Below are positions 31,509-50,673 of a stretch of 64,000 nucleotides of DNA, piece after piece. The notes under the pieces are model-generated. The model saw nothing but the letters and a program-made list of their open reading frames with translations. It was not told the DNA's origin and searched no databases. A program made the translations under genes and the position numbers. This stretch comes from an uncultured Planctomycetaceae bacterium (GTDB lineage: Bacteria > Planctomycetota > Planctomycetia > Pirellulales > UBA7805): the NCBI GenBank assembly GCA_964385715.1, contig CAYLRE010000001.1, positions 1,672 through 65,671 of the forward strand. Direction: 5' to 3'. Numbering within the stretch: the stretch's first letter is position 1; each line of letters begins with the position of its first letter.

Positions 31509-31826
31509 ATGAAGCAGATCATTGCCATCGTGAAACCGTTTATGGTCGAAAAGGTGCTCGAACATCTCCGTCGGGCTCCGCTCGAGGCCTGCAGCATTCG
31601 TGAGGTCAAAGGCCACGGCCGGCAAAAGAGTTACCTCGACGAATACCGCGGCAGCGAATACTCGATGGCCTTTCTGCCCAAGGTCGAAATCACCCTCTGG
31701 GTCGATGACGCTCGGGTCGAGGAGACGGTCCGCAAGATTGTGGAGGTCGCCCGTACCGGTCGCATCGGCGATGGCAAGATCATGGTGCTACCAGCCGATC
31801 AGGCAGAGATCCCGCTCGACGCTTAG
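31509..31826 (+). CDS. glnB: PII-family nitrogen regulatory protein
   Basis: The sequence is MKQIIAIVKPFMVEKVLEHL...VKGHGRQKSYLDEYRGSEYSMAFLPKVEI. It includes the T-loop with the Tyr51 equivalent, followed by TGRIGDGKIMVL. Confidence 0.85.
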   Translation: MKQIIAIVKPFMVEKVLEHLRRAPLEACSIREVKGHGRQKSYLDEYRGSEYSMAFLPKVEITLWVDDARVEETVRKIVEVARTGRIGDGKIMVLPADQAEIPLDA

Positions 31827-31868: not shown

Positions 31869-34475
31869 CTACTTCTCGCACTCGCGGAGTAACTTCTCGA
31901 ACCGATGCTTTCGCTCACCGCCACCTAGCTCCGGGTGCAGAGCTGCCGTGAGCTTGAGAATGCGCAGGGCCTGCTTGGTGTTGCCCATGCGGTGATGGGC
32001 GAGTGCCTGATGGTACTTGGCATCGAACCAGTCGCCGCTGGCCTTCTTGCTGCTTCGCTCAATCTTTCGCCACTGGGCGAGCGCCGCCTGCCAGGCCTCC
32101 GGTGAATTGGCCACGGACGGATGAGAAAGGGCCTGAGCGTAACGCAGTTGCACATCGCGGCTGCGGGGCATCGCCTTGGCTAGCTTGGCATACTCTGCCT
32201 TGGCGCGATCGAAGCGCTTCGCCTCGACCAAGGCCGCCGCACGGGCCAAGTTGAGACGCCGCTGCGTAGAAGGATCGGCAACGGCCAAAACCTTCTGAAA
32301 CTGGTCGACCAGCGAAAGCTGCAAATCGGCCAGAGCTCGCTCGCGCGAACCGTCGGCCTGCTCGCGCAGAACATTCAGGGCCAGGGCCAACTCGATCAGA
32401 TCCTCGCCCTCGATGTGGTCGCTTTGCACGGAAAGTTGACCGGCGGCCGCGGCGGCATCCTCGATGCGTCGCGATTGTCCCGCCAGAGCCAGCACCAACA
32501 GGCCTTGAGCTTCGGCACGCCAGGTGGCAGAAGCATCCTCCGTGGCGGCCATCGTCTTTCGCAGCATCTGCTCGATCTCGTCGTAGCCTTCGCTGAGAAA
32601 GATCATCCGCATACGTGCCCAAGCCAGGAGCAAGGTCCGGCCCAACTCATCGAGCGGCTCGATCAACTCACCCCGCGAATCCAACAGACGGTCGGCGGAA
32701 TAAGTGGCCGCGCGACGGGCAACGCGAGAACGCTGCGCGTCGTCGACCTTGAGCGACTTGAGCCAGCGGTGGTAGGTTCGCACGAGCGAAGTAACGGCAG
32801 CCGCATAATGTGGACTGGCCGAAGTGATCGCGGAGAAGAGCTTCTCGGCCGCTTCCCACTCGCCACGAGCCCGACGCACTTCCCCCAACCATAGGCGAAC
32901 CTGGTCCACAGTTGCGGCCTCCGGCCACGACGCGAGATGCTCTTCGAGTAGCTCGACATATTGGTCGAGGGCCCCGGCCGGCCCACCGCGAACGAGCTGG
33001 GCGGCGTTGTAAACCGCCAACAAATGGGCCGCCGCCGCACGGGCATGCTGCGGCTGCTCCTTGGCGAGCTTGCGGTAACGATCGAGGGCCGCAGAGTGCC
33101 GGCGGCGCTGATGCTCAATCGTCGCGGCAGTGTAAGCCAGGTCGAACGCCTGTTGAGTGTCATTCGCCTTCTGTGCGAGAGCGGCCGCCTTGTCGTAAGT
33201 CGCGATCGCCTCGTCGGGCTTGTCGCTACGGAAGAAGTTCGCCGCGGCGCGGGCGAGCGTGGTCGCGTCCTGGCTACCTCCACCGCTGGTAATGTGACGC
33301 CCCAACAGGGCCTCGGCTCGGCGGGTCCAATACGCACCATGCTCCCGCTCAATAAGGCGGACCAGGTCGTTGCTAGTATGTTCGAGTCGACGAGTCGTCT
33401 GCTTGGTATCGCCCTGAGCGCGGGCGGCAAGAAGTGCCCGCAAGTAATCGTGATCCCACTCAGCAGCCAGGCGACTGATCTTCGCGCGATCCTGCAGAAT
33501 ATCGAGCGCTGCCTCGGCGCGGCCACCGTCGATCAACAGACGGGCACGCTCGAGTCGCGCCTGCTCGGCAATCTCCCGCGGCGCGTCGGCCTCGATCTTC
33601 GCAAGCTGCGCCAGCGCCACCTTCGAGTCTTGCAGCAGCCGGTCGCAGCGGGCTTTGCACAGTCGGGCGGTCCAATCGATCGGATCGTTGCGCTCGGCGA
33701 GCGTACTGAAGAGTGCCTTGGCGGTGTCGACGGCGTTGACGCGATCGGCACTACCGGCGGGGTAAGTCAGACCTTGCGAGACGCGGGTACGGGCCAACTG
33801 ATAACGGACTTCTTCCTGTAGGTTACGCAGCTCGTCGGTCGACAGTGCGGCATCATCCCGCCGCACGGCACGAACACTTGCCGCCAGGGCCTGCGTAAGA
33901 TCGTCGAGCAGCGAGGTCAGCATGCCGGCCGACTTACGCAGCGACGCACGGGCCTGTTGGCGCAGCGGACCGGCGGTGGTGACGACTTCGGCCTCCTGCC
34001 GCAATAGATCACCGCGGGCACGATGCACGAGCGCTTCTTGCCGCCGCAAAAGAAACAGCAACGGGCTGCCTTGGTGCTGGTCGCCGAAGGCGGAGAGTGC
34101 ATCGAACGCCGCCTGCCAGGCAACATCGCGAGCCGCAGACGGAAGCGAAAGAGCATGCAGAGCGTGGGTTCGGGCCAGCTCGACGGTGAGTTCCGCTCTC
34201 CGGCGAAGAGGTAGATCCTCGCGGGAGAGCTGCTCGTTGCAAAACGTTTCGGCCAAGGAGAAGAGCTGGCGAGCGAGCAGACCGTCGACGAACCGCTGGT
34301 CGGCTGACTTGGAGCGAGCCGCGACGGCGAAATCGGCGCTAGCGAACACGGCAGCAATGACCATCACTGCGGCGATCAGCAGCGTAGTCCAGCGGCGAAT
34401 TGTGCTTCGCGAAGGTGTCATCGTGTTGGGTACTAGCTGGCTGTGGCTGACGGGTCGACTCGGCAAATGGGTCAC
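31869..34475 (-). CDS. large TPR-repeat protein with N-terminal signal anchor (last gene of the ExbBD/vWA operon)
   Basis: The product is 868 aa. It has the N-terminal hydrophobic segment RRWTTLLIAAVMVIAAVFASA and is helical-repeat, Ala/Leu/Arg-rich throughout. The start may be the ATG at 34421. Confidence 0.6.
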   Translation of the reverse strand: MTHLPSRPVSHSQLVPNTMTPSRSTIRRWTTLLIAAVMVIAAVFASADFAVAARSKSADQRFVDGLLARQLFSLAETFCNEQLSREDLPLRRRAELTVELARTHALHALSLPSAARDVAWQAAFDALSAFGDQHQGSPLLFLLRRQEALVHRARGDLLRQEAEVVTTAGPLRQQARASLRKSAGMLTSLLDDLTQALAASVRAVRRDDAALSTDELRNLQEEVRYQLARTRVSQGLTYPAGSADRVNAVDTAKALFSTLAERNDPIDWTARLCKARCDRLLQDSKVALAQLAKIEADAPREIAEQARLERARLLIDGGRAEAALDILQDRAKISRLAAEWDHDYLRALLAARAQGDTKQTTRRLEHTSNDLVRLIEREHGAYWTRRAEALLGRHITSGGGSQDATTLARAAANFFRSDKPDEAIATYDKAAALAQKANDTQQAFDLAYTAATIEHQRRRHSAALDRYRKLAKEQPQHARAAAAHLLAVYNAAQLVRGGPAGALDQYVELLEEHLASWPEAATVDQVRLWLGEVRRARGEWEAAEKLFSAITSASPHYAAAVTSLVRTYHRWLKSLKVDDAQRSRVARRAATYSADRLLDSRGELIEPLDELGRTLLLAWARMRMIFLSEGYDEIEQMLRKTMAATEDASATWRAEAQGLLVLALAGQSRRIEDAAAAAGQLSVQSDHIEGEDLIELALALNVLREQADGSRERALADLQLSLVDQFQKVLAVADPSTQRRLNLARAAALVEAKRFDRAKAEYAKLAKAMPRSRDVQLRYAQALSHPSVANSPEAWQAALAQWRKIERSSKKASGDWFDAKYHQALAHHRMGNTKQALRILKLTAALHPELGGGERKHRFEKLLRECEK

Positions 34476-34521
34476 GGCACGCTCGACCGACTAACGGGGC
34501 ACTCAACGTCGGCCAGCAGAA

Positions 34522-34971
34522 TTATAGCGCCGCGGCCGCGAATTGTACTTGCTCAAAGCCGGTCATGCGGGCCGCGTCGTAGGCGTCGACCACATGCCCC
34601 AGAGGCACCGCGTCGTCGACGTCAAGGATCACCGGCACGGCCAGATCGACATCGGCCACACTCGCGAGCACCGCGCGAAGCCGCCCGAGACTATCGACTG
34701 GCTGCTCGTTAACGATCCAGGTCGGGGCGTTGCCGGTCCAACCGATCTCGACGATGACCTCCTGCAGGTCTTCCAGCTCTGGAGGAATCTCGGCCTCGGC
34801 AATGCCGGCCCCTTCCTCCATCTTCACGCTGCTCGGCAACAGCTGCTCGCTAATCTGAAAGCTGGCGGTGCAAATGAAAAAGATCAGCAGCAGAAACACG
34901 ACGTCGATCATCGGCGTCATCGTGGCGTCGGTGCGACCGGCGGTCTCGTTGTGGTAAGAAGGAATTCGCAT
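34522..34971 (-). CDS. exbD: ExbD/TolR-family protein (copy 2)
   Basis: I use the internal ATG at 34971. The sequence is ...ATMTPMIDVVFLLLIFFICTASF...VILDVDDAVPLGHVVDAYDA. Confidence 0.8.
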   Translation of the reverse strand: MRIPSYHNETAGRTDATMTPMIDVVFLLLIFFICTASFQISEQLLPSSVKMEEGAGIAEAEIPPELEDLQEVIVEIGWTGNAPTWIVNEQPVDSLGRLRAVLASVADVDLAVPVILDVDDAVPLGHVVDAYDAARMTGFEQVQFAAAAL

Positions 34972-35018
34972 GTTCTGTTGGTTAGCAGACAGCCAGACGA
35001 CGAGACGAAATGAACAGC

Positions 35019-35471
35019 CTAAAACGCGTCCTCGCGGCGAATGACAACGATCGAAACATTCCACACCCCTTGCTTGGCGCAAGTGGCCAGGACCGGCGAA
35101 ACGATTTTATACGGCACGTCGCGGTCACTGCGTATCCGCACGTCGAGCTCCCCACCAGCCCGCGCGACCTCGTCGGCCAGGCGTTGCGGCAATTCTTCAA
35201 TCGTGACTGGCAGACTGCCAAGCCGCATCTCGAACTGGCCATTCTCCGACAACAGATTGATCGTCACCCGCGGACGATCGGACTGCGGATCTTCCTCGCC
35301 ACTATCGGCAGTAGGAAGCGCCACCTCGGCCTGCACTTCCTGTCGCGCCAGATGGCTACTGACCAGGAAGAAGATGATCAGCAGGAACACCACGTCAATC
35401 ATCGGCGTCATGTTGGGCTGCACACCGCTACGACGTTTGGGACCGTGTCTTTGCGAGGAACTCGATCGCAT
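35019..35471 (-). CDS. exbD: ExbD/TolR-family protein (copy 1)
   Basis: The sequence is NMTPMIDVVFLLIIFFLVSSHL...IRSDRDVPYKIVSPVLATCAKQG. Confidence 0.8.
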   Translation of the reverse strand: MRSSSSQRHGPKRRSGVQPNMTPMIDVVFLLIIFFLVSSHLARQEVQAEVALPTADSGEEDPQSDRPRVTINLLSENGQFEMRLGSLPVTIEELPQRLADEVARAGGELDVRIRSDRDVPYKIVSPVLATCAKQGVWNVSIVVIRREDAF

Positions 35472-35476
35472 GAGCG

Positions 35477-36499
35477 TTACCCTCCCGCCTGTGGTGGTGG
35501 TGGAGGCGTCGCACCACCTGCTTGGCCGCGAGCGCCACCACTGCCCGCGTTACCAGCGTTTCCCGCCACAGGGGCACTCGCGCCGCCTGCCCCTCCCGCC
35601 CCTCCCGCTCGTCGCTGCGAACGACGTCGCTTGAGCGGCAAGAAGACGTGTTGGGCCATGTACGATCCTTCGGCCACCAGCTCATCAACACGATTGCGGA
35701 ACACGGCAAACGCGGCCAGGCAAGGAATCGCTACCAGCAGCCCGCCGACCGTCGTTACCAGGGCCTGATAGATTCCAGTCGCCAGCTGCGGCGCACGGGC
35801 GGCACCTTGTGTATTGGCCACTTCCTGAAAGGCAAAGATCATACCGGTGACCGTGCCCAACAGCCCGATCATGGGGGCGATGTTGCCAATCACCGAAAGG
35901 TACTCGACCTTACGGAACAACCGCGCGGCCTGCTCGGTCGAAGCATCTTCCATCGCCTTCTCCACGGCTGACCAGCCGCCGTCAACCTCGCCGATGCCTG
36001 CCTGAAGTACAAATGCCAAGAAGCTCGGTTGCTGCCGACAAAGCTCTTCGGCCCCGTCGACATTTCCGGCCAAGAGTTGTGCCTGCACATCGTTCGCCAG
36101 TCGCGGCGGCATGATCGTGTCTTTACGGATCGACATCATGTGTTCGATGCCGAGGCCGACCGCCGTGATCGATAACCCGAACAGCACCAGCACGATCAGA
36201 AAGCCGATCCAGCTGCCGGAAAAGACGATGTCGAAAAAGCCATGGTCTTCGGCCGTCTCACCGGCAGCCTCCGAACCGCCAGCATCGCCGGGCGCGGCGG
36301 CGGCAACACCGTCATCAGCGGCCGACGAAAATTCGCCATAGGCAGTGACCAAGGCAAAGACCATCGCCAAACCGGTCAACCAGGTGAGCGTTCTCGAAAA
36401 ACGGCGTATCGCGGATTGTGGCAAGGAACCAATGCTCGCTGTTAGAAAGTTTAAAAAGAATAAGGACAACGCAAGTCGTTCGTGCGCCTCACGGTCCAC
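35477..36499 (-). CDS. exbB: MotA/TolQ/ExbB-family proton channel with Gly/Ala/Pro-rich C-terminal tail
   Basis: The sequence is LSVIGNIAPMIGLLGTVTGMIFAF...ALVTTVGGLLVAIP. The N-terminal periplasmic extension has a signal-like segment, and the tail is GGAGGAGGASAPVAGNAGNAGSGG...PPPPPQAGG. Confidence 0.8.
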   Translation of the reverse strand: MDREAHERLALSLFFLNFLTASIGSLPQSAIRRFSRTLTWLTGLAMVFALVTAYGEFSSAADDGVAAAAPGDAGGSEAAGETAEDHGFFDIVFSGSWIGFLIVLVLFGLSITAVGLGIEHMMSIRKDTIMPPRLANDVQAQLLAGNVDGAEELCRQQPSFLAFVLQAGIGEVDGGWSAVEKAMEDASTEQAARLFRKVEYLSVIGNIAPMIGLLGTVTGMIFAFQEVANTQGAARAPQLATGIYQALVTTVGGLLVAIPCLAAFAVFRNRVDELVAEGSYMAQHVFLPLKRRRSQRRAGGAGGAGGASAPVAGNAGNAGSGGARGQAGGATPPPPPQAGG

Positions 36500-36605
36500 C
36501 TCGATTCTGCGATATCTCGGCAGTTCGAGGCAAGCCCGTTATGGAAATCACCGTCATCAGAAACACACAATGCGGCACACACCATCGGCTGCTACCGTCG
36601 CTTCG

Positions 36606-37709
36606 CTACTCGCCCAACTTCTCTAGTCGCTGCTTCGCTTCTTTGGCCGCGTAGGAATCGGGGTAACCGGCGACCAATTCACGTAGCACTCGCGTGGCCT
36701 CTTCCTTCTGCCCGATCGAAGAGAGCGAGCTTCCGGCGTAGAGCAGAGCCTCGGCTGCGATGTCCTTTTGACGAGGGAACAAGATCGGCACCCGCATCAT
36801 GGTAAGTGCGGCAGCCTGATGCTGCTTCCGCACCGCCTGCCCCCGCCCCACAACAAAATAGGGTCCCGACCGCAGTCGCTCCGGCAGCTTCTCAATCGTG
36901 CGTGCCCAACGCTTTACATCGTCGTCGGTCGCGGTCGGAATCTGTGTCTGCCAAAGTTGGCAACTCGCCAGCAGTGCAATCTCCGTGTCGCTCCCCTTGG
37001 CCAGCTTTCGCAAGATGGCGAGTGCCTGTTCGCGACTCGGCGAACGCTTCATGTGACTAGCGGCCAATAGTTGCACCGACGCGCGATCGGAATCTTCCAA
37101 CCAACCTTTGGCAACACGCTCCGCTACGCTGGCGGACGAAGTCCAAGCGAGCGGCATCTTGTCCAGGAACACGCGATCGGCATCGCGACGGGCCAGGTTT
37201 ACAAACAGGTCGCCCGCTCGCTTGTAGTCGCCAAGAGCCTGGCGACATTCCATCGCCTTGGCCGTCAGCTGAGTTCGCACCCAAGCCCGCTTCTCTTTGT
37301 CGGCCCGCAAGGCGTTGCGATAGTAGAGTCGAGCCGCGGCAAAGTCCTCAAGCGCCGCCGCCTGATCGGCATCTTGATGCATCTTCGACTTGGGGTACTC
37401 GAATCGTACGACCTGGTCGACGGGAATCGTAATTTCGCGACCACCCAACGTGCGAAGCACCAGACCATTGTTGTCGTAGCTCTGAATCGTGCCTGCCCGA
37501 CGCGTTTCTTTGTCCGAACCGGCGTCCGCGTGATACCAGACGATGTCGTTGGCTATGCCAATCGACGCCGCAGCGGACAACAGCACAGCGAACAAGGCAA
37601 CAACCATCTTCGACCGCCAGCTGCCGCGACGTACTGTTCTATGGATAAGTCGGTGCATAGGTGAATGTGCCGTCTGGTACGCAACGACGAGCCTGTTGGC
37701 CAGCATCAT
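36606..37709 (-). CDS. TPR-like helical-repeat protein with N-terminal signal/anchor
   Basis: The product is 367 aa and contains KMVVALFAVLLSAAASIGIA. The C-terminus (ALLYAGSSLSSIGQKEEATRVLRELVAGYPDSYAAKEAKQRL) is TPR-like. Its start overlaps the vWA gene's stop by 4 nt. Confidence 0.55.
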   Translation of the reverse strand: MMLANRLVVAYQTAHSPMHRLIHRTVRRGSWRSKMVVALFAVLLSAAASIGIANDIVWYHADAGSDKETRRAGTIQSYDNNGLVLRTLGGREITIPVDQVVRFEYPKSKMHQDADQAAALEDFAAARLYYRNALRADKEKRAWVRTQLTAKAMECRQALGDYKRAGDLFVNLARRDADRVFLDKMPLAWTSSASVAERVAKGWLEDSDRASVQLLAASHMKRSPSREQALAILRKLAKGSDTEIALLASCQLWQTQIPTATDDDVKRWARTIEKLPERLRSGPYFVVGRGQAVRKQHQAAALTMMRVPILFPRQKDIAAEALLYAGSSLSSIGQKEEATRVLRELVAGYPDSYAAKEAKQRLEKLGE

Positions 37710-38692
37710 GGCAGCAGCCGATTGGTGTGGAAGAAGTTGTAGCGACCGCGATTCTTACTGGCCAACTGCTTGAGCCAATTATTGCCAACCGGGGCGGCCC
37801 CGTCGCCGAACTGAATGACATGAATCGACGCCGAGCCGCGATTGGAACGGGTCACGCGGCGCAACTCGCTTGGCTCCAGCGGTGGAAAGTCACCATCGGT
37901 CAAGAAGAAAATCACATCCGGTTGCATCCGCGTAGCAATCATCAAGGCTGGCTCGTGCCGAGTCGTGTTGGCCGCCTCGATCTTCTCAATATAGTCGCGG
38001 GCAGCCTTCTTATTCAGTTCCGTGGCAAAGACCAATCTGCCCTGGGCACCAGTCGGCGAAAAGATCGTCGGCGTGCTGTTGTAAAAGATGATTTGAAACT
38101 GGTGTGTTCGTTCCAGGCTCTCCAGACTCGCAAGCAGTTCACGTTTGGCCGCCTTGAGCCGTTGTCCACTCATGCTGGTCGACGAGTCGAACACGTAAAC
38201 GAACTTGAAGCCTTCACCCGGCAGCCCGAACACCTCGGTCCGTGCGGCTCCCCCTTCTAGATTGCGCTGGCCAGGGCCTTTTCCAGAAATATCGACATTG
38301 CCACCGCCGGCCGCGGCGTCGGTCGCCGCCGGACCGATGCCGGCATCTCGCGATGGCAAGAAGTCGGTCGGATCGATGGGCGACTGATTGTCACTCGGCA
38401 GTGCTTCAACGACCGCCGTCATCGCGGTACTGTCGGCAGACTCGGCCGCTTGATCGGCATTGTCGAGCGGGCCTTCAAAGGAACGTCCCTGGGGCGAATT
38501 CCGCTTTAATACGATTCCAGTCGTGCGGGCCGGCTCTTCAACCACGCCTGGCACCTGTGTGCCGATCGCCAAGGCGAGCACGATCAGGATACCCGCGTGC
38601 AAGATCATCGACCCCAACCAAGCCGGCAGACGGCGCCGACCGCTGGCGTCGTTTTCCTGCCACTCGCGAATTTCGGCGTCGAGATCGGACAT
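37706..38692 (-). CDS. membrane-anchored von Willebrand factor A (vWA) domain protein with TonB-like SxxxH anchor helix
   Basis: The N-terminal helix is LPAWLGSMILHAGILIVLALAIG, followed by a Pro/Ala-rich linker. The vWA MIDAS context is FVYVFDSSTSMSG...IIFYNS...FFLTDG. Confidence 0.7.
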   Translation of the reverse strand: MSDLDAEIREWQENDASGRRRLPAWLGSMILHAGILIVLALAIGTQVPGVVEEPARTTGIVLKRNSPQGRSFEGPLDNADQAAESADSTAMTAVVEALPSDNQSPIDPTDFLPSRDAGIGPAATDAAAGGGNVDISGKGPGQRNLEGGAARTEVFGLPGEGFKFVYVFDSSTSMSGQRLKAAKRELLASLESLERTHQFQIIFYNSTPTIFSPTGAQGRLVFATELNKKAARDYIEKIEAANTTRHEPALMIATRMQPDVIFFLTDGDFPPLEPSELRRVTRSNRGSASIHVIQFGDGAAPVGNNWLKQLASKNRGRYNFFHTNRLLP

Positions 38693-38968
38693 CGGCTAAC
38701 AACAGAGGTACGAGAAATGGAACCGCTTACTAGGAACACGACCGCTCGCGCCGGGAATTCTATGACTGGTCCATCCACCAATCAACAGCGAGACCGAGAC
38801 AGCCATCGGGAAATGCCGCCGAAGGTCGGCGAAAGGTCGACTTCCGATAGTATCGGCCTTTTGGCCGCCCGGCCCCACTACAAGGGAGCACAAAACGGGA
38901 CGCCTCGCCTCTCAGAACAACTACCTCCGCTTGCCTGGCCCCCTGCTGCCGTAAAATCCCCGCTGCTC

Positions 38969-39022: not shown

Positions 39023-39685
39023 GTGGTCGCCCTTGGTACGTTCCCCCCTGATGCGTCAAAGTTCGACGCCACGATTTCCCGATCGGAAAAAAGGCCTGAA
39101 ACGTTGAAGATCATCGACTATCCCCATCCGACACTGCGACACAAGAGTAAGCCGATCCGTCGGGTCGATGCCGAACTGCGTGGTATGATCGCCGAAATGT
39201 TCGAGCTGATGTACGAAGCCAACGGGATCGGTCTGGCGGCGAATCAGGTCGACCTGCCGCTTCGTTTCTTCGTAGTCAATCCAGAAGGTCGCGATGGCGA
39301 TCGCTCTCAAGAGCGAGTCTTCATTAACCCGGTATTGGAACGTCCCAAGGGAAGCTCTGAGGCAGAAGAAGGTTGCTTAAGCCTGCCGCAGCTCTACGCC
39401 CAGGTGAAACGGCCCAAGACCGTGGTCTGCACCGCCTACAATTTACAAGGCGAACAAACGACCGAGGAACTCGACGGGCTCCTCTCGCGCGTTGTTCAGC
39501 ATGAGACCGATCACCTCGACGGCATCATGTTTATCGATCGCATTAGCGAAACCGAAGCACTCGCCAATCAGGTGGCGATTCACAACTTCGAAGTCACATT
39601 CGCCGACGCACAACAGCGAGGTGAGATTCTTAGCGACGAAAAGATCGCTGCACGCCTGGCCGAAATAGAAGCGAAGTACTGCTAG
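39023..39685 (+). CDS. def: peptide deformylase
   Basis: GIGLAANQV, EGCLSLP and QHETDHLDG are present. The likely true start is the TTG at 39104 (M-KIIDYPHPTLR). Confidence 0.9.
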   Translation: MVALGTFPPDASKFDATISRSEKRPETLKIIDYPHPTLRHKSKPIRRVDAELRGMIAEMFELMYEANGIGLAANQVDLPLRFFVVNPEGRDGDRSQERVFINPVLERPKGSSEAEEGCLSLPQLYAQVKRPKTVVCTAYNLQGEQTTEELDGLLSRVVQHETDHLDGIMFIDRISETEALANQVAIHNFEVTFADAQQRGEILSDEKIAARLAEIEAKYC

Positions 39686-39754
39686 GGCATTCCGCGGCGA
39701 ACCGCTTCACGCCGATAGTACGCAACGCCACGAATTCCGCGAACAAAGGTTGTT

Positions 39755-40720
39755 ATGCGTTTGATCATGATGGGCACGGGCGGATACGCGGTGCCAACAT
39801 TCGAAGCACTCATCGAGTCATCGCACGATGTCGCTGCGCTCGTGACCAAACCGGCACCGGAAACGAAACGCCGCCGTTCCGCCCCCCGCAATCCAATGCG
39901 AGAAGCCGGCCAGGCCCACGATTTGCCGATCTTCGATCCCGTCAGCATCAACTCACCAGAAGGTCTTGAACTGCTCACGGACCTGGCCGCCGATCTGTTC
40001 ATCGTCTGCGACTATGGTCAGATCCTCTCACCCGAGGCGCTCGCCTTGGCCAAACATGGCGGAATCAACCTGCATGCTTCGCTACTGCCGAAGTATCGTG
40101 GTGCAGCGCCGATCAATTGGGCGCTCTTCAACGGCGACACCGAGACGGGCAACACCGTTCTGCACATGACCCCGCAGATCGACGCCGGTCCCTGCGTGGC
40201 CCAACAACGCGTCACGATCGGCGCGGAGGAAGACGCCATTGAGCTGGAAGAAAGACTCGCCGCGATCGGTGCCCCACTCGTGCTGCAAGTGGTTGATGCC
40301 ATCGAGGCGGGCAACATGCAACCGATCGTTCAGGATCGCGAGCAAGTAACCCGTGCTCCGCGCCTGAAGAAAAGCGACGGCCTGGTCGACTGGTCCCGCT
40401 CGGCTGAGCAGATCGTCAACCAGATTCGGGCCATGCAGCCGTGGCCAGGCACCGCCACCAACTGGCAGCGAACCGACAAAGAACCGCTGCGGCTGATGCT
40501 GCAAAAGGCCCACGCCCTTTCGGCCGACGAAACGGCCGCCATGGAAAACGCAGTTGCCGCCGAGCCTGGCACGGTCGTCACGTCCAACGATCGATTCGTG
40601 GTGGCGACGGGCGAAGGGCTGTTGGCCATCGACGAGCTGAAGCCAGCTGGCAAGCGAGTGCTATCGTCGGCCGAGTTCTTACGTGGCAACCCGGTGCCGG
40701 TCGGGGATCGACTGGCGTAG
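39755..40720 (+). CDS. fmt: methionyl-tRNA formyltransferase
   Basis: The sequence is MRLIMMGTGGYAVPTFEAL...INLHASLLPKYRGAAPINWAL... Confidence 0.9.
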   Translation: MRLIMMGTGGYAVPTFEALIESSHDVAALVTKPAPETKRRRSAPRNPMREAGQAHDLPIFDPVSINSPEGLELLTDLAADLFIVCDYGQILSPEALALAKHGGINLHASLLPKYRGAAPINWALFNGDTETGNTVLHMTPQIDAGPCVAQQRVTIGAEEDAIELEERLAAIGAPLVLQVVDAIEAGNMQPIVQDREQVTRAPRLKKSDGLVDWSRSAEQIVNQIRAMQPWPGTATNWQRTDKEPLRLMLQKAHALSADETAAMENAVAAEPGTVVTSNDRFVVATGEGLLAIDELKPAGKRVLSSAEFLRGNPVPVGDRLA

Positions 40721-40864
40721 AGGGTAACCTTCGGCCGTTTTCGTCGACGTCTAGCGGCCGAACTCCGGTGGCGGTAATCCCACCTCCCGTGGTAAGATGT
40801 GCCCCCTGACGTGACCGCACTGGCCGCGTCGACTTGGACCGGTGATCAAGGAGGTTTGCCGGAA

Positions 40865-41071
40865 ATGTGGGATCGCTGGGACGTCTTGTTGCTTGTCATC
40901 GCCGGCTACGTGGCCGTGATGTCGCTCGTTCGGCTAATGTCGACGCGACGTCGTGAGTTGGCCGCGAAGTTTCGCGCCCAGATGCAGGCCGAGCGCCAAC
41001 GCGTGGCCGCTGAGGTCGCTCGCAAGAAACGGGCCGAAATAATGGCGGCCCAGCGCGACAAGGTCGCTTAG
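40865..41071 (+). CDS. small single-pass membrane protein with basic coiled-coil tail (hypothetical)
   Basis: The sequence is MWDRWDVLLLVIAGYVAVMSLVRLMSTRRRELAAKFRAQMQAERQR... I use the internal ATG of ORF 40799-41071. Confidence 0.4.
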   Translation: MWDRWDVLLLVIAGYVAVMSLVRLMSTRRRELAAKFRAQMQAERQRVAAEVARKKRAEIMAAQRDKVA

Positions 41072-41195
41072 GCGAGCGTGCCTGTCGAGACGCCCTACGG
41101 AGCGACTCGCCGCGTTCGACAGATTGCCGCGAAACGTTGCCACTCGATTCCCGTTGCCTCCTTACCGAATTCACCGCTAACGTCCACCGCCGCGC

Positions 41196-42695
41196 ATGTC
41201 TGAAGCTTCGTCCCCACAAGAAACGGCTACCTCCTCGCCAGCGACCGTGCCTGCTAGTGCAACCGATGGCAGCGGCGCAAAAAAGTCGCTCTACATCGAG
41301 ACGGTCGGCTGCCAGATGAACATGCTCGACAGCGAACTGGTTGTCGCCTCGTTGCGTCGACAAGGTTACGAGCTGGTCGATTCCGCCAAAAAAGCTGGCA
41401 CGATCTTGTTCAACACCTGTAGCGTGCGAGAACACGCGGAAGAGAAAATCTACAGTGCGCTCGGGCGGCTCAAGCACGCCAAAAGGCACAACCCCGACAA
41501 GGTCATCGGGGTGCTCGGCTGCATGGCCCAAAACCACCAGAAGACGGTTTTTGACCGGGCCCCTTATGTCGATCTCGTCGTCGGGCCGGGGCAATTGCAT
41601 CAGGTGCCACAACTGATCGAAAAGATTCGTTCCGGCAGCGGACAACAACTCGAAGTCAGCTTGGAACGCCAAGGCGGCGCTCGCGACGTCGTCGCCGACA
41701 GCTTCGAAAGTTTCGACCCGATGCGGTCGCCGGAGATGCGACCATCGCCCTATCAAGCATTCGTGCGGATTCAGATTGGCTGCGACAAGTTCTGCACCTA
41801 CTGCATCGTGCCCAAGGTTCGCGGCCCCGAACAAGGACGGCACCCGCGAGAGATCATCGCCGAGGCGGAACAGCTGGCCAACGAAGGTTGCCGCGAGGTA
41901 ACGCTGCTCGGCCAGACGGTGAACAGCTACAAGTTCCAAGATGGCGAGAAGACCTGGCGGCTCTCCGATCTGCTTTACCGGCTCAGCGATATCGAAGGAC
42001 TCGACCGGCTGAAATTCGTAACCAGCTATCCCCGCGACATGACCGACGACTTGCTCGACGCGGTGCGAACCTTGCCCAAGGCTTCGCACTACCTGCACGT
42101 CCCGGCTCAAAGTGGTTCGGACGAGATCCTCAAGCGGATGAAACGGGGTTACACCGTTGGCGAATACCGCGACATGATGGCCCGCATTCGAGAAGCGATT
42201 CCAGACGCGGCCGTGACGAGCGACTTTATCGTCGGCTTCTGCGGTGAAACCGACGAGGACTTCCAGAAAACGGTCGACCTGGTCAAAGAGTGTCGCTTCA
42301 AGAACAGCTTCATCTTCAAATACAGTGTCCGCCCCGGCACCAAAGGCGCTGAGCGACTGGCCGACGACGTACCCGAGGCGGTCAAGAAACAGCGCAACAA
42401 CGAGCTGCTGGCAATCCAGAACGCGATCTGCGAAGAAGACAACGAGAAGCGAATCGGCTCGCAGTTCCAAATCCTGGTCGAAGGGCTCAGCAAAGCGGCC
42501 GCCAAAGCGGGCGACGATTCACCCAAGGTGCAGCTCACGGGCCGCGACAACTGGGATCGCATTGTCGTCTTCGAGGGCAACCGCCGCCTGATCGGGCGCA
42601 TGGTCGACGTCACCATCTACGACGCCAACGCCCACACGCTGTTCGGCGAGGTCGTAACCGATCACGTCACGCCCGAGGTCTACTCACTGTCGTAG
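41196..42695 (+). CDS. miaB: tRNA-i6A37 methylthiotransferase MiaB
   Basis: The UPF0004 N-terminal domain is LYIETVGCQMNMLDSE. The radical SAM motif is IQIGCDKFCTYCIVP, and a TRAM domain forms the C-terminus. Confidence 0.9.
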   Translation: MSEASSPQETATSSPATVPASATDGSGAKKSLYIETVGCQMNMLDSELVVASLRRQGYELVDSAKKAGTILFNTCSVREHAEEKIYSALGRLKHAKRHNPDKVIGVLGCMAQNHQKTVFDRAPYVDLVVGPGQLHQVPQLIEKIRSGSGQQLEVSLERQGGARDVVADSFESFDPMRSPEMRPSPYQAFVRIQIGCDKFCTYCIVPKVRGPEQGRHPREIIAEAEQLANEGCREVTLLGQTVNSYKFQDGEKTWRLSDLLYRLSDIEGLDRLKFVTSYPRDMTDDLLDAVRTLPKASHYLHVPAQSGSDEILKRMKRGYTVGEYRDMMARIREAIPDAAVTSDFIVGFCGETDEDFQKTVDLVKECRFKNSFIFKYSVRPGTKGAERLADDVPEAVKKQRNNELLAIQNAICEEDNEKRIGSQFQILVEGLSKAAAKAGDDSPKVQLTGRDNWDRIVVFEGNRRLIGRMVDVTIYDANAHTLFGEVVTDHVTPEVYSLS

Positions 42696-42811
42696 ACGCG
42701 CGCGTCGACTCGCTCCTTCGCCACCGATTCTCCCCTCGCAACAGAGAGAGTGTGCGAATCTGGGTCGCCGGGGCGCGTGACTTCTTGAGATAGCCACTCC
42801 GTCTGCCTACG

Positions 42812-45800
42812 ATGGCGTGTATGGATTCTACGTTGGAACAGCTGCGCACGCGTCTGGAAGATCCGAGCGAGGGAGCCCGTTGGCTTGAATCGATCGGGGT
42901 CAGCGATGGCGTGCGCGGCCAGGCCAATCTGGCGGCGATTGCCTCGGCCGGCTTGTCACTCGACTTGATGTCGATCATCTGCCAGCAGCTGGCCGAGTAC
43001 CTTCCATCCTCGAGCGATCCCGATCGGGCGCTGAACAACTTGGAGCGATTCGTCGTCTCCGCCCGCAATCCGCTCTCGCTGGCGTCGCTGTTTGAGCGCG
43101 ATGCCGAAGCCCTGCCCCAGTTGTTACAAATCTTCGCCACGAGTCAGGCCCTCTCCGACGTCTTGGTCTCCGACCACGAGAGTTACGACCTGCTGCGAAT
43201 GACCGGCGGTCAACCGTCGGCCCGTGACGCCTTGGTCGAAGAAGTGACCAGCGAAGTTCTGGCACTCGGCGAACCGGCAGCGATCTCGGCCGCCCTGCGA
43301 AGATTCAAGCGCCGTGAGACGCTGCGAATTGCCTACGGCGATATCATCGCGCAGCAGAGGCTCGATACCGTCACCAGGCAAATCAGCTATCTGGCCGACG
43401 CCTTGGTCGAGGCGGCCGTGCGCGTCGCCTGGAGCCGATTGGAAGAAAAACATGGCGTCCCCTGCGACAACGAAGGACGCATCGTCAGCTTCGTGGTCAT
43501 GGCGATGGGCAAACTCGGTGGCGAAGAGCTCAACTACTCCAGCGACATCGACTTGATCTGTCTCTACGATCGCGACGGCAAGACCGACGGTCGCCGTTCG
43601 CAGAGCAATGCCGAGTTCTTTGCCGCCTTGGTTCGCGACATGGTCAAGCTGTTGACCGAAGCGACTGAGATGGGAACCGTCTATCGTGTTGACCTGCGAC
43701 TTCGCCCCGAAGGTTCACGCGGCCCCGTGGCGATGAGCCTGGAGAGTGCACTGAGCTACTACGACATTCGCGGTCGCACCTGGGAACGCCAAGCGATGAT
43801 CAAGGCTCGTCCCGCCGCCGGCAACCTGGCGCTAGGCCGCGAGTTTCTCGAACGTCTCGCTCCTTGGATCTACCGCAAGTATCTCGGCCTGGCCGACATC
43901 ACCGGGATCAAGGCGCTCAAGCGCCGCATCGAACAACGGACGCTTCGCGAAGGGGGCGACGAGCTCGATGTCAAAACGGGCCACGGCGGCATTCGCGATA
44001 TCGAGTTCGCTATCCAGTTCTTGCAACTCTTGCACGGCAGCGATCTGCCGGAAGTCCGCACGCCCAACACCCTCGAGGCAATGACCCGGCTCGAACATGT
44101 CGGTTCGCTCACGCACCAAGAGTGGACGCTGCTCAACGAAAACTACCGCTTCCTCCGTAAGCTCGAACACCGCCTGCAAATCATGTTCGATCTGCAAACG
44201 CATACGATGCCGAAAGACGACGAGGAAGTTCGCCGCCTGGCAATTCGCATGGGCTACAGCGACACGAGCGATGCCTCGGGCAAGGAGCTTTCGGCCCAAG
44301 ATGCATTCCGCGCCGACTACCGCCAGAAGACGCAGCAAAATCGAAAGGTGCTCGACCACCTGCTGCACGATGCCTTTGGCGATGATGCCCCGGCCGAACC
44401 GGAAGTCGACCTGGTGCTCGACCCGGAGCCGCCGGTAGAACGAATTGAAGAGGTGCTCGGCAAGTACGGCTTCGAGGATGTGCCGGCCGCGTACCGCAAT
44501 CTGATGGATCTTTCCGAAGAGAAGATCCGCTTCCTGTCGACGCGGCGCTGCCGTATGTTCTTGGCGGCCATCGCTCCGCAACTGTTGAAGGCGATCGCCT
44601 CCAGACCCGATCCCGACGCCACGCTGTTGAACCTTTGCAAAGTGAGCGACTCCCTCGGCGGCAAAGGCGTGTTGTGGGAATTGTTCAGCGCCAACGAACC
44701 GTCGCTGCAACTCTATGTCGGTCTGTGTGCTTCCAGTCCGATGCTCTCCAACGTGTTGGTCAGCAATCCCGGCATGATCGACGAGCTGATGGACAGCCTC
44801 GTGCTCGATCGCCTGCCTGGCCTTTCCTGGATGCAGCAACAACTCGTCGAACTTTGCTACGCGGCGGAAGATGTCGAGCCGATCCTGCACAGTTTCAAGA
44901 GTGCCAAGCAGCTACGCGTCGGCGTTCGTGACATCCTCGGCAAGGAAGACATTCAGGCGACCACCGGAGCCTTGTCGGACATCGCTCAGGCTTGCTTGCG
45001 ATTGATCACAGAGATGGAGTATCAGAAGCTGGCCAAGCGGCTCGGCGAACCGATTGTCGCGCTCGGTCCGCGGGCCGGGCATGTGAGCGAGTTTGTGATT
45101 CTGGCGATGGGCAAGTTCGGCGGCCGGGAGCTCAACTATCACAGCGACCTCGACATTGTGTTCCTATTCGAGGCCGAAGGGGGAACCGCCCATCGCATGA
45201 GCGGTCGCTCCGGCGAAGTGACTTCCAATCAACACTTCTTCGATGAACTGGGGCAACGAATCATCAAGATCGCCAGCCAACTCGGCCCCTACGGCCGACT
45301 GTACGAAGTCGACCCCAGGCTCCGACCGACGGGACGCAGCGGGGCACTCGCCACGAGCATGTCCGAATTCAATCGTTACTTTGCCGAAGGGGACGGTCAG
45401 CTGTGGGAACGGATGGCGCTGTGCCGCGCACGTCCGGTGCTTGGCAACGAACGTGCTCAGTTTCGCGTGAATGAGGCGGTCGCCACGGCCGCCTTCGATC
45501 ACGAATGGAAACGCGAGTATGCCGACGAGATTGCCGATATGCGAGGCCGGCTCGAAGACGCCGCCAGCAAGGGCAGCCTCAAACGGGGACGCGGCGGCAT
45601 CGTCGATATCGAGTTCATCGCCCAACTCTTGCAGCTGCAACATGGTCGAGAGCGACCGGAGTTGCGCGAGCCGAACACCGTGGCGGCACTCACGGCCCTG
45701 CACGAAGCTGGCCTGCTCGACGCGGAATCGCACGAGTCGCTCACCAGCAGCTACCGCTTCTTGCGAACGGTCGAGTCGCGGGTGCAGTTGATGAATCCAC

Positions 45801-45958
45801 TCGCCAGCGCGTCACTTCCCAGCGACGAAGCGGAGCTGGAAAAGCTGGCCCGGCTGTGCGATCTGGCATCGGCCGATGCCCTGCTGCAAGAATGCGAGCG
45901 ACGGTGCGAAAGTAACCGCCAGTACTTTGAGCGGTTCATCGCGGAAGCGCGGCGATAG
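42812..45958 (+). CDS. glnE: bifunctional glutamine synthetase adenylyltransferase/adenylyl-removing enzyme
   Basis: The product is 1048 aa with two nucleotidyltransferase halves: MGKLGGEELNYSSDIDLI and MGKFGGRELNYHSDLDIVF. Each half has a VDLRLRPEG / VDPRLRPTG block. Confidence 0.9.
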   Translation: MACMDSTLEQLRTRLEDPSEGARWLESIGVSDGVRGQANLAAIASAGLSLDLMSIICQQLAEYLPSSSDPDRALNNLERFVVSARNPLSLASLFERDAEALPQLLQIFATSQALSDVLVSDHESYDLLRMTGGQPSARDALVEEVTSEVLALGEPAAISAALRRFKRRETLRIAYGDIIAQQRLDTVTRQISYLADALVEAAVRVAWSRLEEKHGVPCDNEGRIVSFVVMAMGKLGGEELNYSSDIDLICLYDRDGKTDGRRSQSNAEFFAALVRDMVKLLTEATEMGTVYRVDLRLRPEGSRGPVAMSLESALSYYDIRGRTWERQAMIKARPAAGNLALGREFLERLAPWIYRKYLGLADITGIKALKRRIEQRTLREGGDELDVKTGHGGIRDIEFAIQFLQLLHGSDLPEVRTPNTLEAMTRLEHVGSLTHQEWTLLNENYRFLRKLEHRLQIMFDLQTHTMPKDDEEVRRLAIRMGYSDTSDASGKELSAQDAFRADYRQKTQQNRKVLDHLLHDAFGDDAPAEPEVDLVLDPEPPVERIEEVLGKYGFEDVPAAYRNLMDLSEEKIRFLSTRRCRMFLAAIAPQLLKAIASRPDPDATLLNLCKVSDSLGGKGVLWELFSANEPSLQLYVGLCASSPMLSNVLVSNPGMIDELMDSLVLDRLPGLSWMQQQLVELCYAAEDVEPILHSFKSAKQLRVGVRDILGKEDIQATTGALSDIAQACLRLITEMEYQKLAKRLGEPIVALGPRAGHVSEFVILAMGKFGGRELNYHSDLDIVFLFEAEGGTAHRMSGRSGEVTSNQHFFDELGQRIIKIASQLGPYGRLYEVDPRLRPTGRSGALATSMSEFNRYFAEGDGQLWERMALCRARPVLGNERAQFRVNEAVATAAFDHEWKREYADEIADMRGRLEDAASKGSLKRGRGGIVDIEFIAQLLQLQHGRERPELREPNTVAALTALHEAGLLDAESHESLTSSYRFLRTVESRVQLMNPLASASLPSDEAELEKLARLCDLASADALLQECERRCESNRQYFERFIAEARR

Positions 45959-49542: not shown

Positions 49543-50673
49543 TTATCCCTGCGACCCGAATGAGAACTCCTTCTTGGTCGCCTGATCGCGAATGGCTTCG
49601 ATCAAGGCCTCGTCAAGCGAGGCTTCGTCCGAATCTTCCGCCATCTCCTTTCGCTTGTCGGCAACGTACTTGGTTCGAGCGGCGTTCAATTCGTTGATCA
49701 TCTTCTTGATCGCGTCACGCTGCTTCTGTTTCTCCGCGACATAGGCGACTCGTTGCTCGAGCGTCATTTCCCGCATCGCTTCGGGTAGATCCTCTACAGC
49801 GATCTTGGCGAGGTCGACCTTGTTATCGCGAACCGCGTCACACAAGTCCCATGCGGCGTTGTTATAGAAGGCGTTCGCCTTGGCCACGGCTCTTTGTTGA
49901 GAACTGGCGACGGAAGACGCGCTGGCGTTTTCATCCTGTTCGGCCTGTCGACCCGCTCCCGCCTTACCTTCCTTGCCATAGGCGATATAGGTGTTGTTCA
50001 AATCGATGCCTAACTTGGCAATCGTCTTGTCTTGGGGCGCTTCAATGTGCACCACCGCCTGGGTGTGATCGATATTCATCGATTGACCGTCAGCCAGCAG
50101 CGCTCCATCGCGCCAATCATCGGGGATTCCTGTGCCACAATGAATCGTGTTGATTGTGATTCCCTTGGCTGCGGCCGCACTACAAGCTTCACGGTAGTCA
50201 ACTGGACCTTGCGTAAAGGGTTCATTGCCGGCGATAAAGATCAACTTCAAATCGCCGCGATGATCGCTCCACTCCAATTCGTTCACTGCCGTCTGAATGA
50301 CCTGACCACAATATTCGCTTCCGCCGGAGACCGGAATTCCGAACAGGACTTCGGAAACGCGATCCAAGTCATCCGTCAGACCAACCAGTTTCGTGGCCGG
50401 CGGATTGCCGTAGTGATAGATGGCCACCTGCAAAAGCGGACGCTGATCCCCCACTTTTGCCGTAACAAACTCATTGACGACCTTCCAGAGTTCGCTACGG
50501 GCCTGGTTAATCAAACCGCTCATACTGCCGGAATTATCCAGCAGAATCGCAATTTGTACGAGCGGTCGCCTGGCTTCAGGCTTCACCGCACCCGACTCGG
50601 CACGCGCGTCGGCAACCAACGTCAAGGCAATCAACGAAACAAGACAGATGAACGGAATTATGCGGCGTGACAT
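49543..50673 (-). CDS. secreted vWA-domain protein with C-terminal coiled coil
   Basis: The signal peptide is MSRRIIPFICLVSLIALTLVADARA. The MIDAS context is VQIAILLDNSGSMSG...LIFIAGNE. Confidence 0.75.
   Translation of the reverse strand: MSRRIIPFICLVSLIALTLVADARAESGAVKPEARRPLVQIAILLDNSGSMSGLINQARSELWKVVNEFVTAKVGDQRPLLQVAIYHYGNPPATKLVGLTDDLDRVSEVLFGIPVSGGSEYCGQVIQTAVNELEWSDHRGDLKLIFIAGNEPFTQGPVDYREACSAAAAKGITINTIHCGTGIPDDWRDGALLADGQSMNIDHTQAVVHIEAPQDKTIAKLGIDLNNTYIAYGKEGKAGAGRQAEQDENASASSVASSQQRAVAKANAFYNNAAWDLCDAVRDNKVDLAKIAVEDLPEAMREMTLEQRVAYVAEKQKQRDAIKKMINELNAARTKYVADKRKEMAEDSDEASLDEALIEAIRDQATKKEFSFGSQG

Follow-up and report, generated by a model that had tools for sequence, protein, structure and literature searches.

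A predicted vWA-type force transducer encoded with an ExbB/ExbD motor and two periplasmic TPR proteins in Pirellulales

In a 64-kb stretch of DNA from an uncultured Planctomycetaceae bacterium (contig CAYLRE010000001.1; the whole stretch is referred to here as the window), six co-directional genes on the minus strand bring together a vWA-domain (von Willebrand factor A) protein, an ExbB/ExbD-type stator, and two tetratricopeptide-repeat (TPR) proteins. All six open reading frames (ORFs) lie where an earlier, sequence-only reading of the window had placed them. Read in the direction of the cluster, they encode a 328-aa vWA protein (37706..38692), predicted to be a force transducer with an N-in helix, a linker, and a periplasmic vWA domain; a 367-aa periplasmic TPR protein (36606..37709); an ExbB/TolQ-like stator subunit (35477..36499, with an uncertain start); two ExbD/TolR-like subunits, called ExbD1 (35019..35471, 150 aa) and ExbD2 (34522..34971, 149 aa); and an 868-aa periplasmic TPR solenoid (31869..34475). 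The features of these proteins support the view that the vWA protein would replace TonB or TolA as the partner energised by ExbB and ExbD, and what the cluster probably provides is a pull of the TonB/TolA style, delivered through a metal-dependent vWA grip.

The vWA protein and its proposed motor

The predicted architecture of the vWA protein is that of TonB and TolA: an anchor helix, a strand, a disordered linker, and a folded C-terminal domain. In a single-chain AlphaFold2 (AF2) model, the helix (residues 24-44) reaches pLDDT confidence values of 84-95, residues 45-146 are disordered (pLDDT <55), and the vWA domain (residues 150-328) lies above 95. The transmembrane (TM) helix, aa 24-44 (38561..38623; all features of the cluster are on the minus strand), is the single N-terminal helix of the protein and is directly preceded by an Arg-rich segment; the protein is thus predicted to be oriented N-in, C-out. 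The helix carries an SHLS-type motif with Ser28 (38609-38611), His32 (38597-38599), and Leu39, and has the family consensus LPAWLxSxxLHxxL. In an alignment of 25 homologues of 40-62% identity, Ser28 and His32 are invariant and the remaining helix positions vary; the pattern S-x3-H-x6-hydrophobic, whose +7 residue is Leu39 here, is found in 238 of 254 full-length homologues, most of the exceptions being N-terminal truncations in which the His is still visible. TonB and TolA dock on their motors through the signature Ser-x3-His-x6-hydrophobic (PMC12204202). When a profile of the N-terminal part of the family is compared with 177,635 PDB sequences, three matches are obtained at E <= 10, two of which are E. 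coli TolA, aligned in register with TolA Ser18/His22 at E = 2.4.

The helix is followed by the strand 'TGIVLKR' (aa 58-64, 38501..38521), a candidate motor box on the basis of its conservation and of secondary structure assigned by DSSP. Within 'GIVLK', G59 and L62 are invariant (in alignment A5, G44, I45, and L47 are invariant or nearly so), and the AF2 model has strands at 63-66 and 69-72, at low pLDDT. The motor box has been defined as a predicted β-strand in the disordered stretch after the helix (PMC12204202), a description that the conserved strand fits at the level of sequence. The disordered linker, aa 45-148 (38249..38560, pLDDT <55), is rich in acidic residues, Ala, Gly, and Pro and varies in sequence, save for a motif D-P-x3-L-P near aa 106-113, in which L112 and P113 are nearly invariant. 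Its length hardly varies: the distance from the helix Ser to the first Asp of the metal-ion-dependent adhesion site (MIDAS) has a median of 141 aa (interquartile range 139-145, n=244 homologues). The linker may act both as a periplasmic ruler and as a TPR-binding peptide.

The C-terminal domain is matched by three Pfam families over aa 165-323 (VWA_2, 1.9e-8; VWA_3, 4e-7; VWA, 1e-6). Its MIDAS motif D169-x-S171-x-S173 (38174..38188) is invariant in the alignment together with T244 and D266, and DxSxSM is present in 252 of 254 homologues. Foldseek places the domain among MIDAS-type ligand-binding vWA domains at 1e-12 to 1e-7, including ITIH1 at 9e-12; the other matches are the bacterial vWA protein 4fx5, the calcium-channel alpha2delta subunit, CLCA1, and anthrax-toxin receptors.

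The stator genes encode what appears from sequence to be a motor with its proton-path residues intact in ExbB and in both ExbDs. ExbB matches MotA_ExbB at 4e-28 and aligns with E. coli TolQ (8odt) over three TM helices at 1e-10; it retains GLLGTVTGM and ALVTTVGGLLVAIP, both present in 50/50 orthologues and both containing the Thr of the channel motifs. It carries an N-terminal signal peptide and an acidic stretch, and it ends in a cytoplasmic tail of low complexity (35477-35620), rich in Gly, Ala, and Pro and about 45 residues long (RRAGGAGGAGGASAPVAGNAGNAGSGGARGQAGGATPPPPPQAGG). ExbD1 and ExbD2 match the ExbD family at 4e-25 and 1e-18, and the TM Asp (TPMIDV) is kept in 48/48 and 45/45 of their respective orthologues. 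The two are alignable with each other only over 45 TM residues, at 42% identity, and their periplasmic domains are unrelated in sequence; since the likeness is confined to the membrane segment, a heterodimeric ExbD1-ExbD2 plug is likely. Scores against the NCBIfam equivalogs for TolQ, TolR, ExbB, and ExbD fall far below the cutoffs (TIGR02796 tolQ, 74.6 bits against a cutoff of 221; TIGR02801 tolR, 50.6 and 26.2 against 127), and the motor thus forms a separate clade of the family.

The sequence-only reading could not recognise a TonB or TolA domain in the cluster, and profile searches of the six products, which returned the expected vWA, MotA_ExbB, and two ExbD matches, agree with it: none of the six has a match to a TonB_C, TonB_2, or TolA family at E <= 1, whether in Pfam or in NCBIfam. 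TonB_C is likewise absent from the PDB profile searches of both TPR families, and no TonB_C, TonB-dependent receptor, TolB, or OmpA/Pal occurs among the other large ORFs of the window.

Both TPR proteins reach only sub-threshold TPR scores in Pfam in the source genome, yet their assignment is solid across orthologues: in the 367-aa family TPR_6 matches 27 of 31 members and TPR_2 25 of 31 (best E 2e-13), in the 868-aa family TPR_6, TPR_19, or TPR_14 is found in 10-14 of 20, and E-values in the two families range from 1e-9 to 1e-13. Orthologues in both families begin with signal-peptide-like sequences, and both proteins are thus placed in the periplasm; the anchor motif is absent. The sequence-only reading had counted the vWA protein and the two TPR proteins alike as candidate partners of the stator. 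The vWA protein keeps this place, with its Ser-x3-His anchor, strand, linker, and MIDAS; the TPR proteins, with signal peptides and no anchor motif, do not, and are most likely periplasmic scaffolds or adaptors rather than alternative transducers, as far as sequence can tell.

The 367-aa family has an N-terminal β domain of about 50 residues (five strands, aa ~55-104), followed by helical repeats with the invariant residues R141, W143, P186, W189, S218, and Q251, and by a C-terminal TPR part. Its profile finds CpoB (6g5s, 1.4e-10) as the best natural match in the PDB, and YbgF (2xev) at 4e-4; against NCBIfam tol_pal_ybgF the protein scores 1e-8, at 35.7 bits below the cutoff of 90.1. The N-terminal part, that is the β domain and the extra repeats, is unlike CpoB. 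Homologue searches with the 367-aa protein, whether by single sequence or by profile, returned 3 proteins each, TPR-like words swamping retrieval, and the AF2 model rests on a 5-sequence alignment (mean pLDDT 68; five strands at 55-104, then repeats). With this model Foldseek finds generic TPR proteins; the third-best match, 9hmf_K (E 8e-4, TM 0.36), is a TPR component of the periplasmic scaffold by which the flagellar motor of Campylobacter holds its MotAB stators. The 868-aa family forms a TPR solenoid over its whole length, as judged from its alignment and orthologue TPR matches; its profile matches TPR and PPR designs and CpoB (2.8e-4) in the PDB, where it picks up neither TonB_C nor a barrel. 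The 868-aa protein also has a weak NCBIfam match to FlcA, of the spirochaete flagellar collar (E 0.007). Together the flagellar matches may offer a weak analogy for TPR scaffolds around 5:2 motors.

That the 367-aa protein is a short paralogue of the 868-aa protein is unsupported (hhalign probability 33%); the two co-cluster among neighbourhood ORFs through TPR similarity and through a fusion at locus L077 (10003-13491; Pirellulales metagenome-assembled genome (MAG) JALHMI010000008), where a 1162-aa ORF directly after the vWA gene joins a 367-aa-type to an 868-aa-type protein, with no exbB or exbD between. The fusion is thus a hint that the two TPR proteins act together.

Gene order in the window and in relatives

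The gaps between the genes had been described as tiny, with the vWA gene ending 4 nt into the 367-aa gene (an ATGA overlap). The overlap is real (37706-37709), and the spacing is indeed short between ExbB and ExbD1 (5 nt), ExbD1 and ExbD2 (47 nt), and ExbD2 and the 868-aa gene (46 nt); between the 367-aa gene and exbB, however, it amounts to 106-241 nt, the largest gap of the cluster, the exact size of which is set by the choice of ExbB start. The candidates are GTG 36499 (106-nt gap), TTG 36424, and ATG 36364 (241-nt gap), the last being the public gene call. ExbB orthologues begin with a clear signal peptide, and the matching hydrophobic stretch of the window lies upstream of ATG 36364; GTG 36499 or TTG 36424 is thus the more likely start. 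A sigma-70-like promoter match (38757..38785, 9/12 consensus positions) lies about 65 nt upstream of the vWA start and is weak evidence; promoter-type sites number 5 in the scanned region against 1.5 expected from shuffles, terminator-like sites in the pattern scan of the region are at chance level only, and these scans say nothing on operon structure. Co-transcription of all six genes is plausible from their arrangement, not obligatory.

The order in which the genes stand is kept far beyond the source genome. A scan of one genome per species returned at least 525 relatives, the best 80 of which were used; by record title, 79 of these come from Planctomycetota, mostly Pirellulales, and one (locus L034) from a MAG labelled Candidatus Nealsonbacteria. 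At 50% identity, 484 clusters reach E <= 1e-30. At the 47 informative loci, those with 6.8 kb or more of sequence downstream of the vWA gene, exbB-exbD-exbD follows the vWA gene directly in 34: all six genes are colinear in 23, the first five are present with no large ORF after ExbD2 in nine, and the motor is present with the 367-aa gene absent in two; the other 13 have no adjacent motor. Locus L071, where the vWA, 367-aa, and exbB genes are present and exbD gives no match, was counted on neither side, for a total of 47. Among the 34 motor-linked loci the 868-aa gene comes after ExbD2 in 24 (the 23 full six-gene loci and L013), and no ORF of this kind is seen in the other ten (the nine with five genes, and L036). 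The six-gene order that the sequence-only reading saw in one genome thus recurs in 23 of 47 loci, and its first five genes in nine more, with vWA proteins that are only 38-49% identical to that of the window. The core of the module consists of the vWA protein, the 367-aa TPR protein, ExbB, and two ExbDs, with the 868-aa TPR protein as a frequent sixth member, and the module is stable and very common in Pirellulales. In Blastopirellula sp. J2-11 (vWA protein 43% identical) the order is the same and the genes overlap or abut, with overlapping stop and start codons.

Several relatives depart from this compact arrangement. Between the 367-aa gene and exbB, an IS200-like Y1 transposase is inserted at L032 (11073-11528) and L064 (4196-4660), and a leucine-rich-repeat (LRR) protein together with a DOT1-like methyltransferase at L046 (11298-12793) and L060 (11093-12962); at L075 (11119-14277) an Eco57I/MmeI-type restriction-modification enzyme stands in place of the motor; and between the two exbD genes a GNAT acetyltransferase gene is found at L054 (12824-13447) and L009 (7522-8163). 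All inserted genes are on the same strand as the cluster. L075 and L082 have the vWA, 367-aa, and 868-aa genes with no motor in cis, and at L048 (1065-2072), in one MAG, a vWA homologue with its S-x3-H intact has rpoC, rpsL, rpsG, and fusA as neighbours and neither TPR nor motor genes in the vicinity.

The vWA protein of the window is also encoded, unchanged, on contigs from metagenomes and MAGs that measure up to 1.28 Mb, and its relatives are annotated as Planctomycetota or Pirellulales. In Rhodopirellula baltica, the 327-aa acidic vWA protein RB7557 resembles the family in size and isoelectric point and may or may not be an orthologue; its gene is among 90 R. baltica genes repressed under heat, cold, and high salt, together with those of ribosomal proteins (PMC2754498, Table 2), and the exbB/exbD genes RB12053/RB12055 were induced by salt in the same study (PMC2754498).

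The genes that flank the module in the window are of the housekeeping kind. Those on one side encode MurJ, an ABC-F ATPase, a trypsin-like protease, and P-II; those on the other are def, fmt, a MiaB-like radical-SAM gene, and glnE. The def/fmt/MiaB-like/glnE block lies upstream, in divergent orientation (39023-45958), and is syntenic in many Pirellulales (L032, L016, and L006 among others); when 1012 neighbourhood ORFs are clustered, its members are also the only recurrent neighbours outside the module (def at 31 loci, fmt at 22, the MiaB-like gene at 11, glnE at 9). Its position next to the vWA module looks like housekeeping synteny, with no evident functional link. The P-II nitrogen-regulator gene (31509-31826, plus strand) lies beyond the end of the 868-aa TPR gene, in convergent orientation, and that of GlnE, a glutamine synthetase adenylyltransferase (42812-45958, plus strand), lies 4 kb upstream of the cluster; the presence of nitrogen-regulation genes on both sides of the module is probably a coincidence. 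Two further proteins of the window are recorded here. A second vWA protein of 376 aa (49543-50673, minus strand) is unrelated, with a signal peptide, an N-terminal vWA domain with the MIDAS sequence DNSGSMS, and a long charged helical C-terminus, and it has no TonB-like anchor. A 725-aa protein (61345-63522, plus strand) combines a GHKL ATPase with a topoisomerase VI B transducer domain (1.5e-52) and is thus an archaeal/eukaryotic-type Topo VI B-like protein in a planctomycete.

Proposed mechanism and its rivals

Ton and Tol are the textbook routes by which Gram-negative bacteria energise their outer membrane, which itself has no energy source. For the cluster described here, a related mechanism is proposed, that of a self-contained machine which transduces the proton-motive force. 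An ExbB pentamer around an ExbD1-ExbD2 heterodimer would form a proton-driven 5:2 motor in the inner membrane; the vWA protein would use its N-terminal helix, with the Ser28-x3-His32 face, to dock on the outer side of the ExbB ring, and its 'GIVLK' strand would engage the periplasmic domains of the ExbDs. The disordered linker of about 100 residues, conserved in length, would span the periplasm, and the vWA domain would grip an acidic residue of an outer-envelope partner through its MIDAS metal site; proton flow would then pull on the bound partner. The two TPR proteins with signal peptides would act as scaffolds or adaptors, and may bind the conserved short motif of the linker. The proposal of the sequence-only reading that a MIDAS-containing domain is energised by the stator is supported, at the level of sequence and model, by the invariant MIDAS, the docking motif, and the conserved gene order.

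Several observations weigh against this mechanism, for which all support is computational. In 13 of the 47 loci the vWA gene has no adjacent motor, and several species carry unrelated genes inside the cluster, so that tight co-transcription is not universal. No outer-membrane partner in cis is found among the 1012 clustered neighbourhood ORFs. The fourth SHLS position is hydrophobic in the vWA family, not Ser; the match of the anchor helix to that of TolA is suggestive, not significant on its own; the motor-box strand is modelled at low confidence; and the CpoB likeness of the 367-aa protein, being below the NCBIfam cutoff, could be generic TPR similarity. Finally, no deletion phenotypes are reported for vWA transducers (PMC12204202).

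Some of these points lend themselves to other explanations. The motor could be an ordinary Ton/Tol stator that serves a real TonB or TolA encoded elsewhere in the genome, the vWA and TPR proteins being neighbouring envelope proteins, Bat-like factors of adhesion or aerotolerance, that are mechanically uncoupled from it. In favour of this are the 13 loci without an adjacent motor and the gap before exbB, largest of the cluster and a hot spot of insertion in relatives; the search for TonB_C covered the 64-kb window. An invariant Ser-x3-His in an otherwise variable helix is, however, hard to explain for a passive anchor, as are the conserved post-helix strand and the fixed linker length; the cluster has no BatA N-terminal domain, MoxR ATPase, or DUF58, and vWA and motor are linked in 34 of 47 species. 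Moreover, motor-less homologues such as those of L048 and L077 keep the helix motif, which points to a motor in trans rather than to independence. We thus regard an uncoupled stator as rather improbable. The same gap, with the heterogeneous insertions found at it (the IS200-like transposase, the LRR protein and methyltransferase, the restriction-modification enzyme) and with promoter and terminator scans that are uninformative, could be taken further, to mean that the cluster is a chance juxtaposition or a pair of unrelated transcription units, one with the vWA and 367-aa genes and one with exbB-exbD-exbD and the 868-aa gene. This is very improbable against an order kept across 23-32 species-level genomes at a vWA identity to the window of only 38-49%, the overlapping start and stop codons of Blastopirellula, the motor-docking motif in the vWA protein, and the common strand of all inserted genes.

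A different proposal concerns what the motor moves. In a surface-adhesion or gliding apparatus like Agl-Glt, which has the vWA adhesin CglB, an adhesive vWA domain would be moved or uncovered by the motor, in place of an envelope or uptake task of the Tol or Ton type. Adhesion is a classic function of vWA/MIDAS domains, the nearest structures to the domain seen here are ligand-binding vWA domains, Williams-Jones et al. suggest a gliding-type role (PMC12204202), and the sequence-only reading had noted the same resemblance. A linker of about 100 residues to the inner membrane would, however, leave the vWA domain facing the periplasm, not the cell surface; neither the window nor the recurrent neighbourhoods contain Glt-like outer-membrane or periplasmic components or GltG/GltJ-type proteins with TonB_C, and the synteny of the module, with def and fmt, is of a housekeeping kind. 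We hold an adhesion or gliding apparatus to be improbable.

The mechanism in which the vWA protein is pulled by the ExbB/ExbD motor leaves room for more than one cellular role. Our preferred guess, a weakly supported one, is a Tol-like role, the tethering or remodelling of the outer envelope, in a lineage from which Pal is reported to be missing. It is also conceivable, if unlikely, that the widely conserved module is the main or only machine coupling the proton gradient of the inner membrane to the outer envelope in Pirellulales. Its principle would then differ from that of TonB and TolA, with a force-loaded, metal-mediated MIDAS bond, of the integrin-like catch-bond type, replacing β-strand augmentation, the linker, calibrated in length, serving as a periplasmic ruler, and the dedicated TPR scaffolds positioning the motor; were this true, it could serve budding division, the tethering of the outer membrane, or the uptake of macromolecules. 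Planctomycetes divide without FtsZ and have unusual envelopes; for these reasons, and because of the reported absence of Pal, the physiological role of the module could be informative. A transducer headed by a vWA/MIDAS domain on the same anchor would constitute a third class and broaden the Ton/Tol picture. The analysis yields H32, the ExbD Asp, and MIDAS D169/S171/S173 as targets for mutation, and a search image for the ligand in the outer envelope.

Comparison with known systems

The sequence-only reading held the cluster to be reminiscent of Bat-type operons and of the Agl/Glt apparatus and identical to neither, and this view stands. Bat operons share with it membrane-anchored vWA proteins encoded together with TPR proteins, but have no ExbB/ExbD; assignment to this type is rejected, as neither the six proteins nor their neighbours contain a BatA N-terminal domain, a MoxR AAA+ ATPase, or DUF58 in Pfam and NCBIfam searches. 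As for Agl/Glt, no Glt-like components occur in the window or recur in the neighbourhoods. The Zorya anti-phage system was also considered and rejected, as PADLOC matches nothing but ZorA, and this weakly (5e-4) and through the shared MotA/ExbB core.

With the Ton system the cluster shares an ExbB/ExbD-family motor with proton-path residues and a transducer that is predicted to have an N-in Ser-x3-His helix, a post-helix strand, and a flexible linker. It differs in the C-terminus of the transducer, which is a vWA domain here, TonB_C (PF03544/PF13103) being absent at E <= 1; no β-strand augmentation of a TonB box is thus expected, and no TonB-dependent transporter is found among the large ORFs of the window or the recurrent neighbours. 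It differs further in having two different ExbDs in place of the homodimer of Ton, an acidic, Ala/Gly-rich linker with about 10% Pro in place of a Pro-rich one, and an ExbB with a signal peptide and an N-terminal extension. With TonB_C tested for and absent, a TonB system is ruled out.

The likeness to Tol-Pal extends to several components: TolQ is the best solved-structure match of ExbB, over all three helices, the profile of the transducer helix picks out TolA, and a periplasmic TPR protein with a CpoB/YbgF-like C-terminus is co-encoded. The TolA C-terminal domain, TolB, and Pal, however, are absent from cluster and window, by which a Tol-Pal system is ruled out, and NCBIfam scores for TolQ, TolR, and YbgF are far below the equivalog cutoffs, the likeness to TolQ and TolR being at family level only. 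The TPH-vWA proteins with TolQ only, as in Idiomarina (PMC12204202, Fig. 4c-d), share an inner-membrane-tethered vWA protein beside a TolQ-like gene, but they are without SHLS and carry instead an ExbD-like trans-pore helix (TPH) with a proton-binding Asp, which replaces ExbD, and they have no tolR/exbD nearby; the cluster studied here has two ExbDs, and its vWA helix has Ser and His and no Asp.

The closest counterpart is the class of inner-membrane vWA force transducers described by Williams-Jones et al. (Mol Biol Evol 2025, PMC12204202), which are encoded beside TPR, tolQ-like, and two tolR-like genes in PVC (Planctomycetes-Verrucomicrobia-Chlamydiae) bacteria; the phyla given are Proteobacteria, Planctomycetes, Verrucomicrobia, Bacteroidetes, and Rhodothermaeota. 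In these proteins a helix with an SHLS motif is followed by a motor box, by domain II with its roughly 100 residues, and by a C-terminal vWA domain (PMC12204202, Fig. 4a-b); AlphaFold3 (AF3) docks the His of their helix onto the motor in the manner of the ExbBD-TonB and TolQRA structures, and the supplement describes Planctomycetes as being without Pal and suggests a third, possibly motility-related function (PMC12204202). No other papers on the class, and no experimental follow-up, were found in the literature. By sequence and model, the vWA protein of the window has the SHLS-type helix with its key His, the motor-box strand, a domain II of about 100 residues, and the vWA fold at its C-terminus, and its gene has the same synteny, with one tolQ/exbB-like, two dissimilar tolR/exbD-like genes, and one TPR gene adjacent, the likeness being one of described features. 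The locus thus belongs to a class that has already been described, by computation only (PMC12204202).

Differences from the published members lie mainly in the arrangement. The published vWA genes are often downstream of the TPR and motor genes, whereas that of Pirellulales comes first and overlaps a TPR gene; Pirellulales add a second TPR gene of 830-880 aa, usually the last, which is absent from the paper; and the reference locus of Tichowtungia aerotolerans has two vWA transducers where the window has one. To the published description (PMC12204202) the present analysis adds the invariance of the MIDAS, the constant length of the linker, the CpoB-like end of the 367-aa protein, the signal peptides that ExbB and the two TPR proteins carry, and the natural variation of the cluster. 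Specific to Pirellulales are the vWA gene in first position with its overlapping TPR gene, the second large TPR gene, and the position of the module beside def and fmt.

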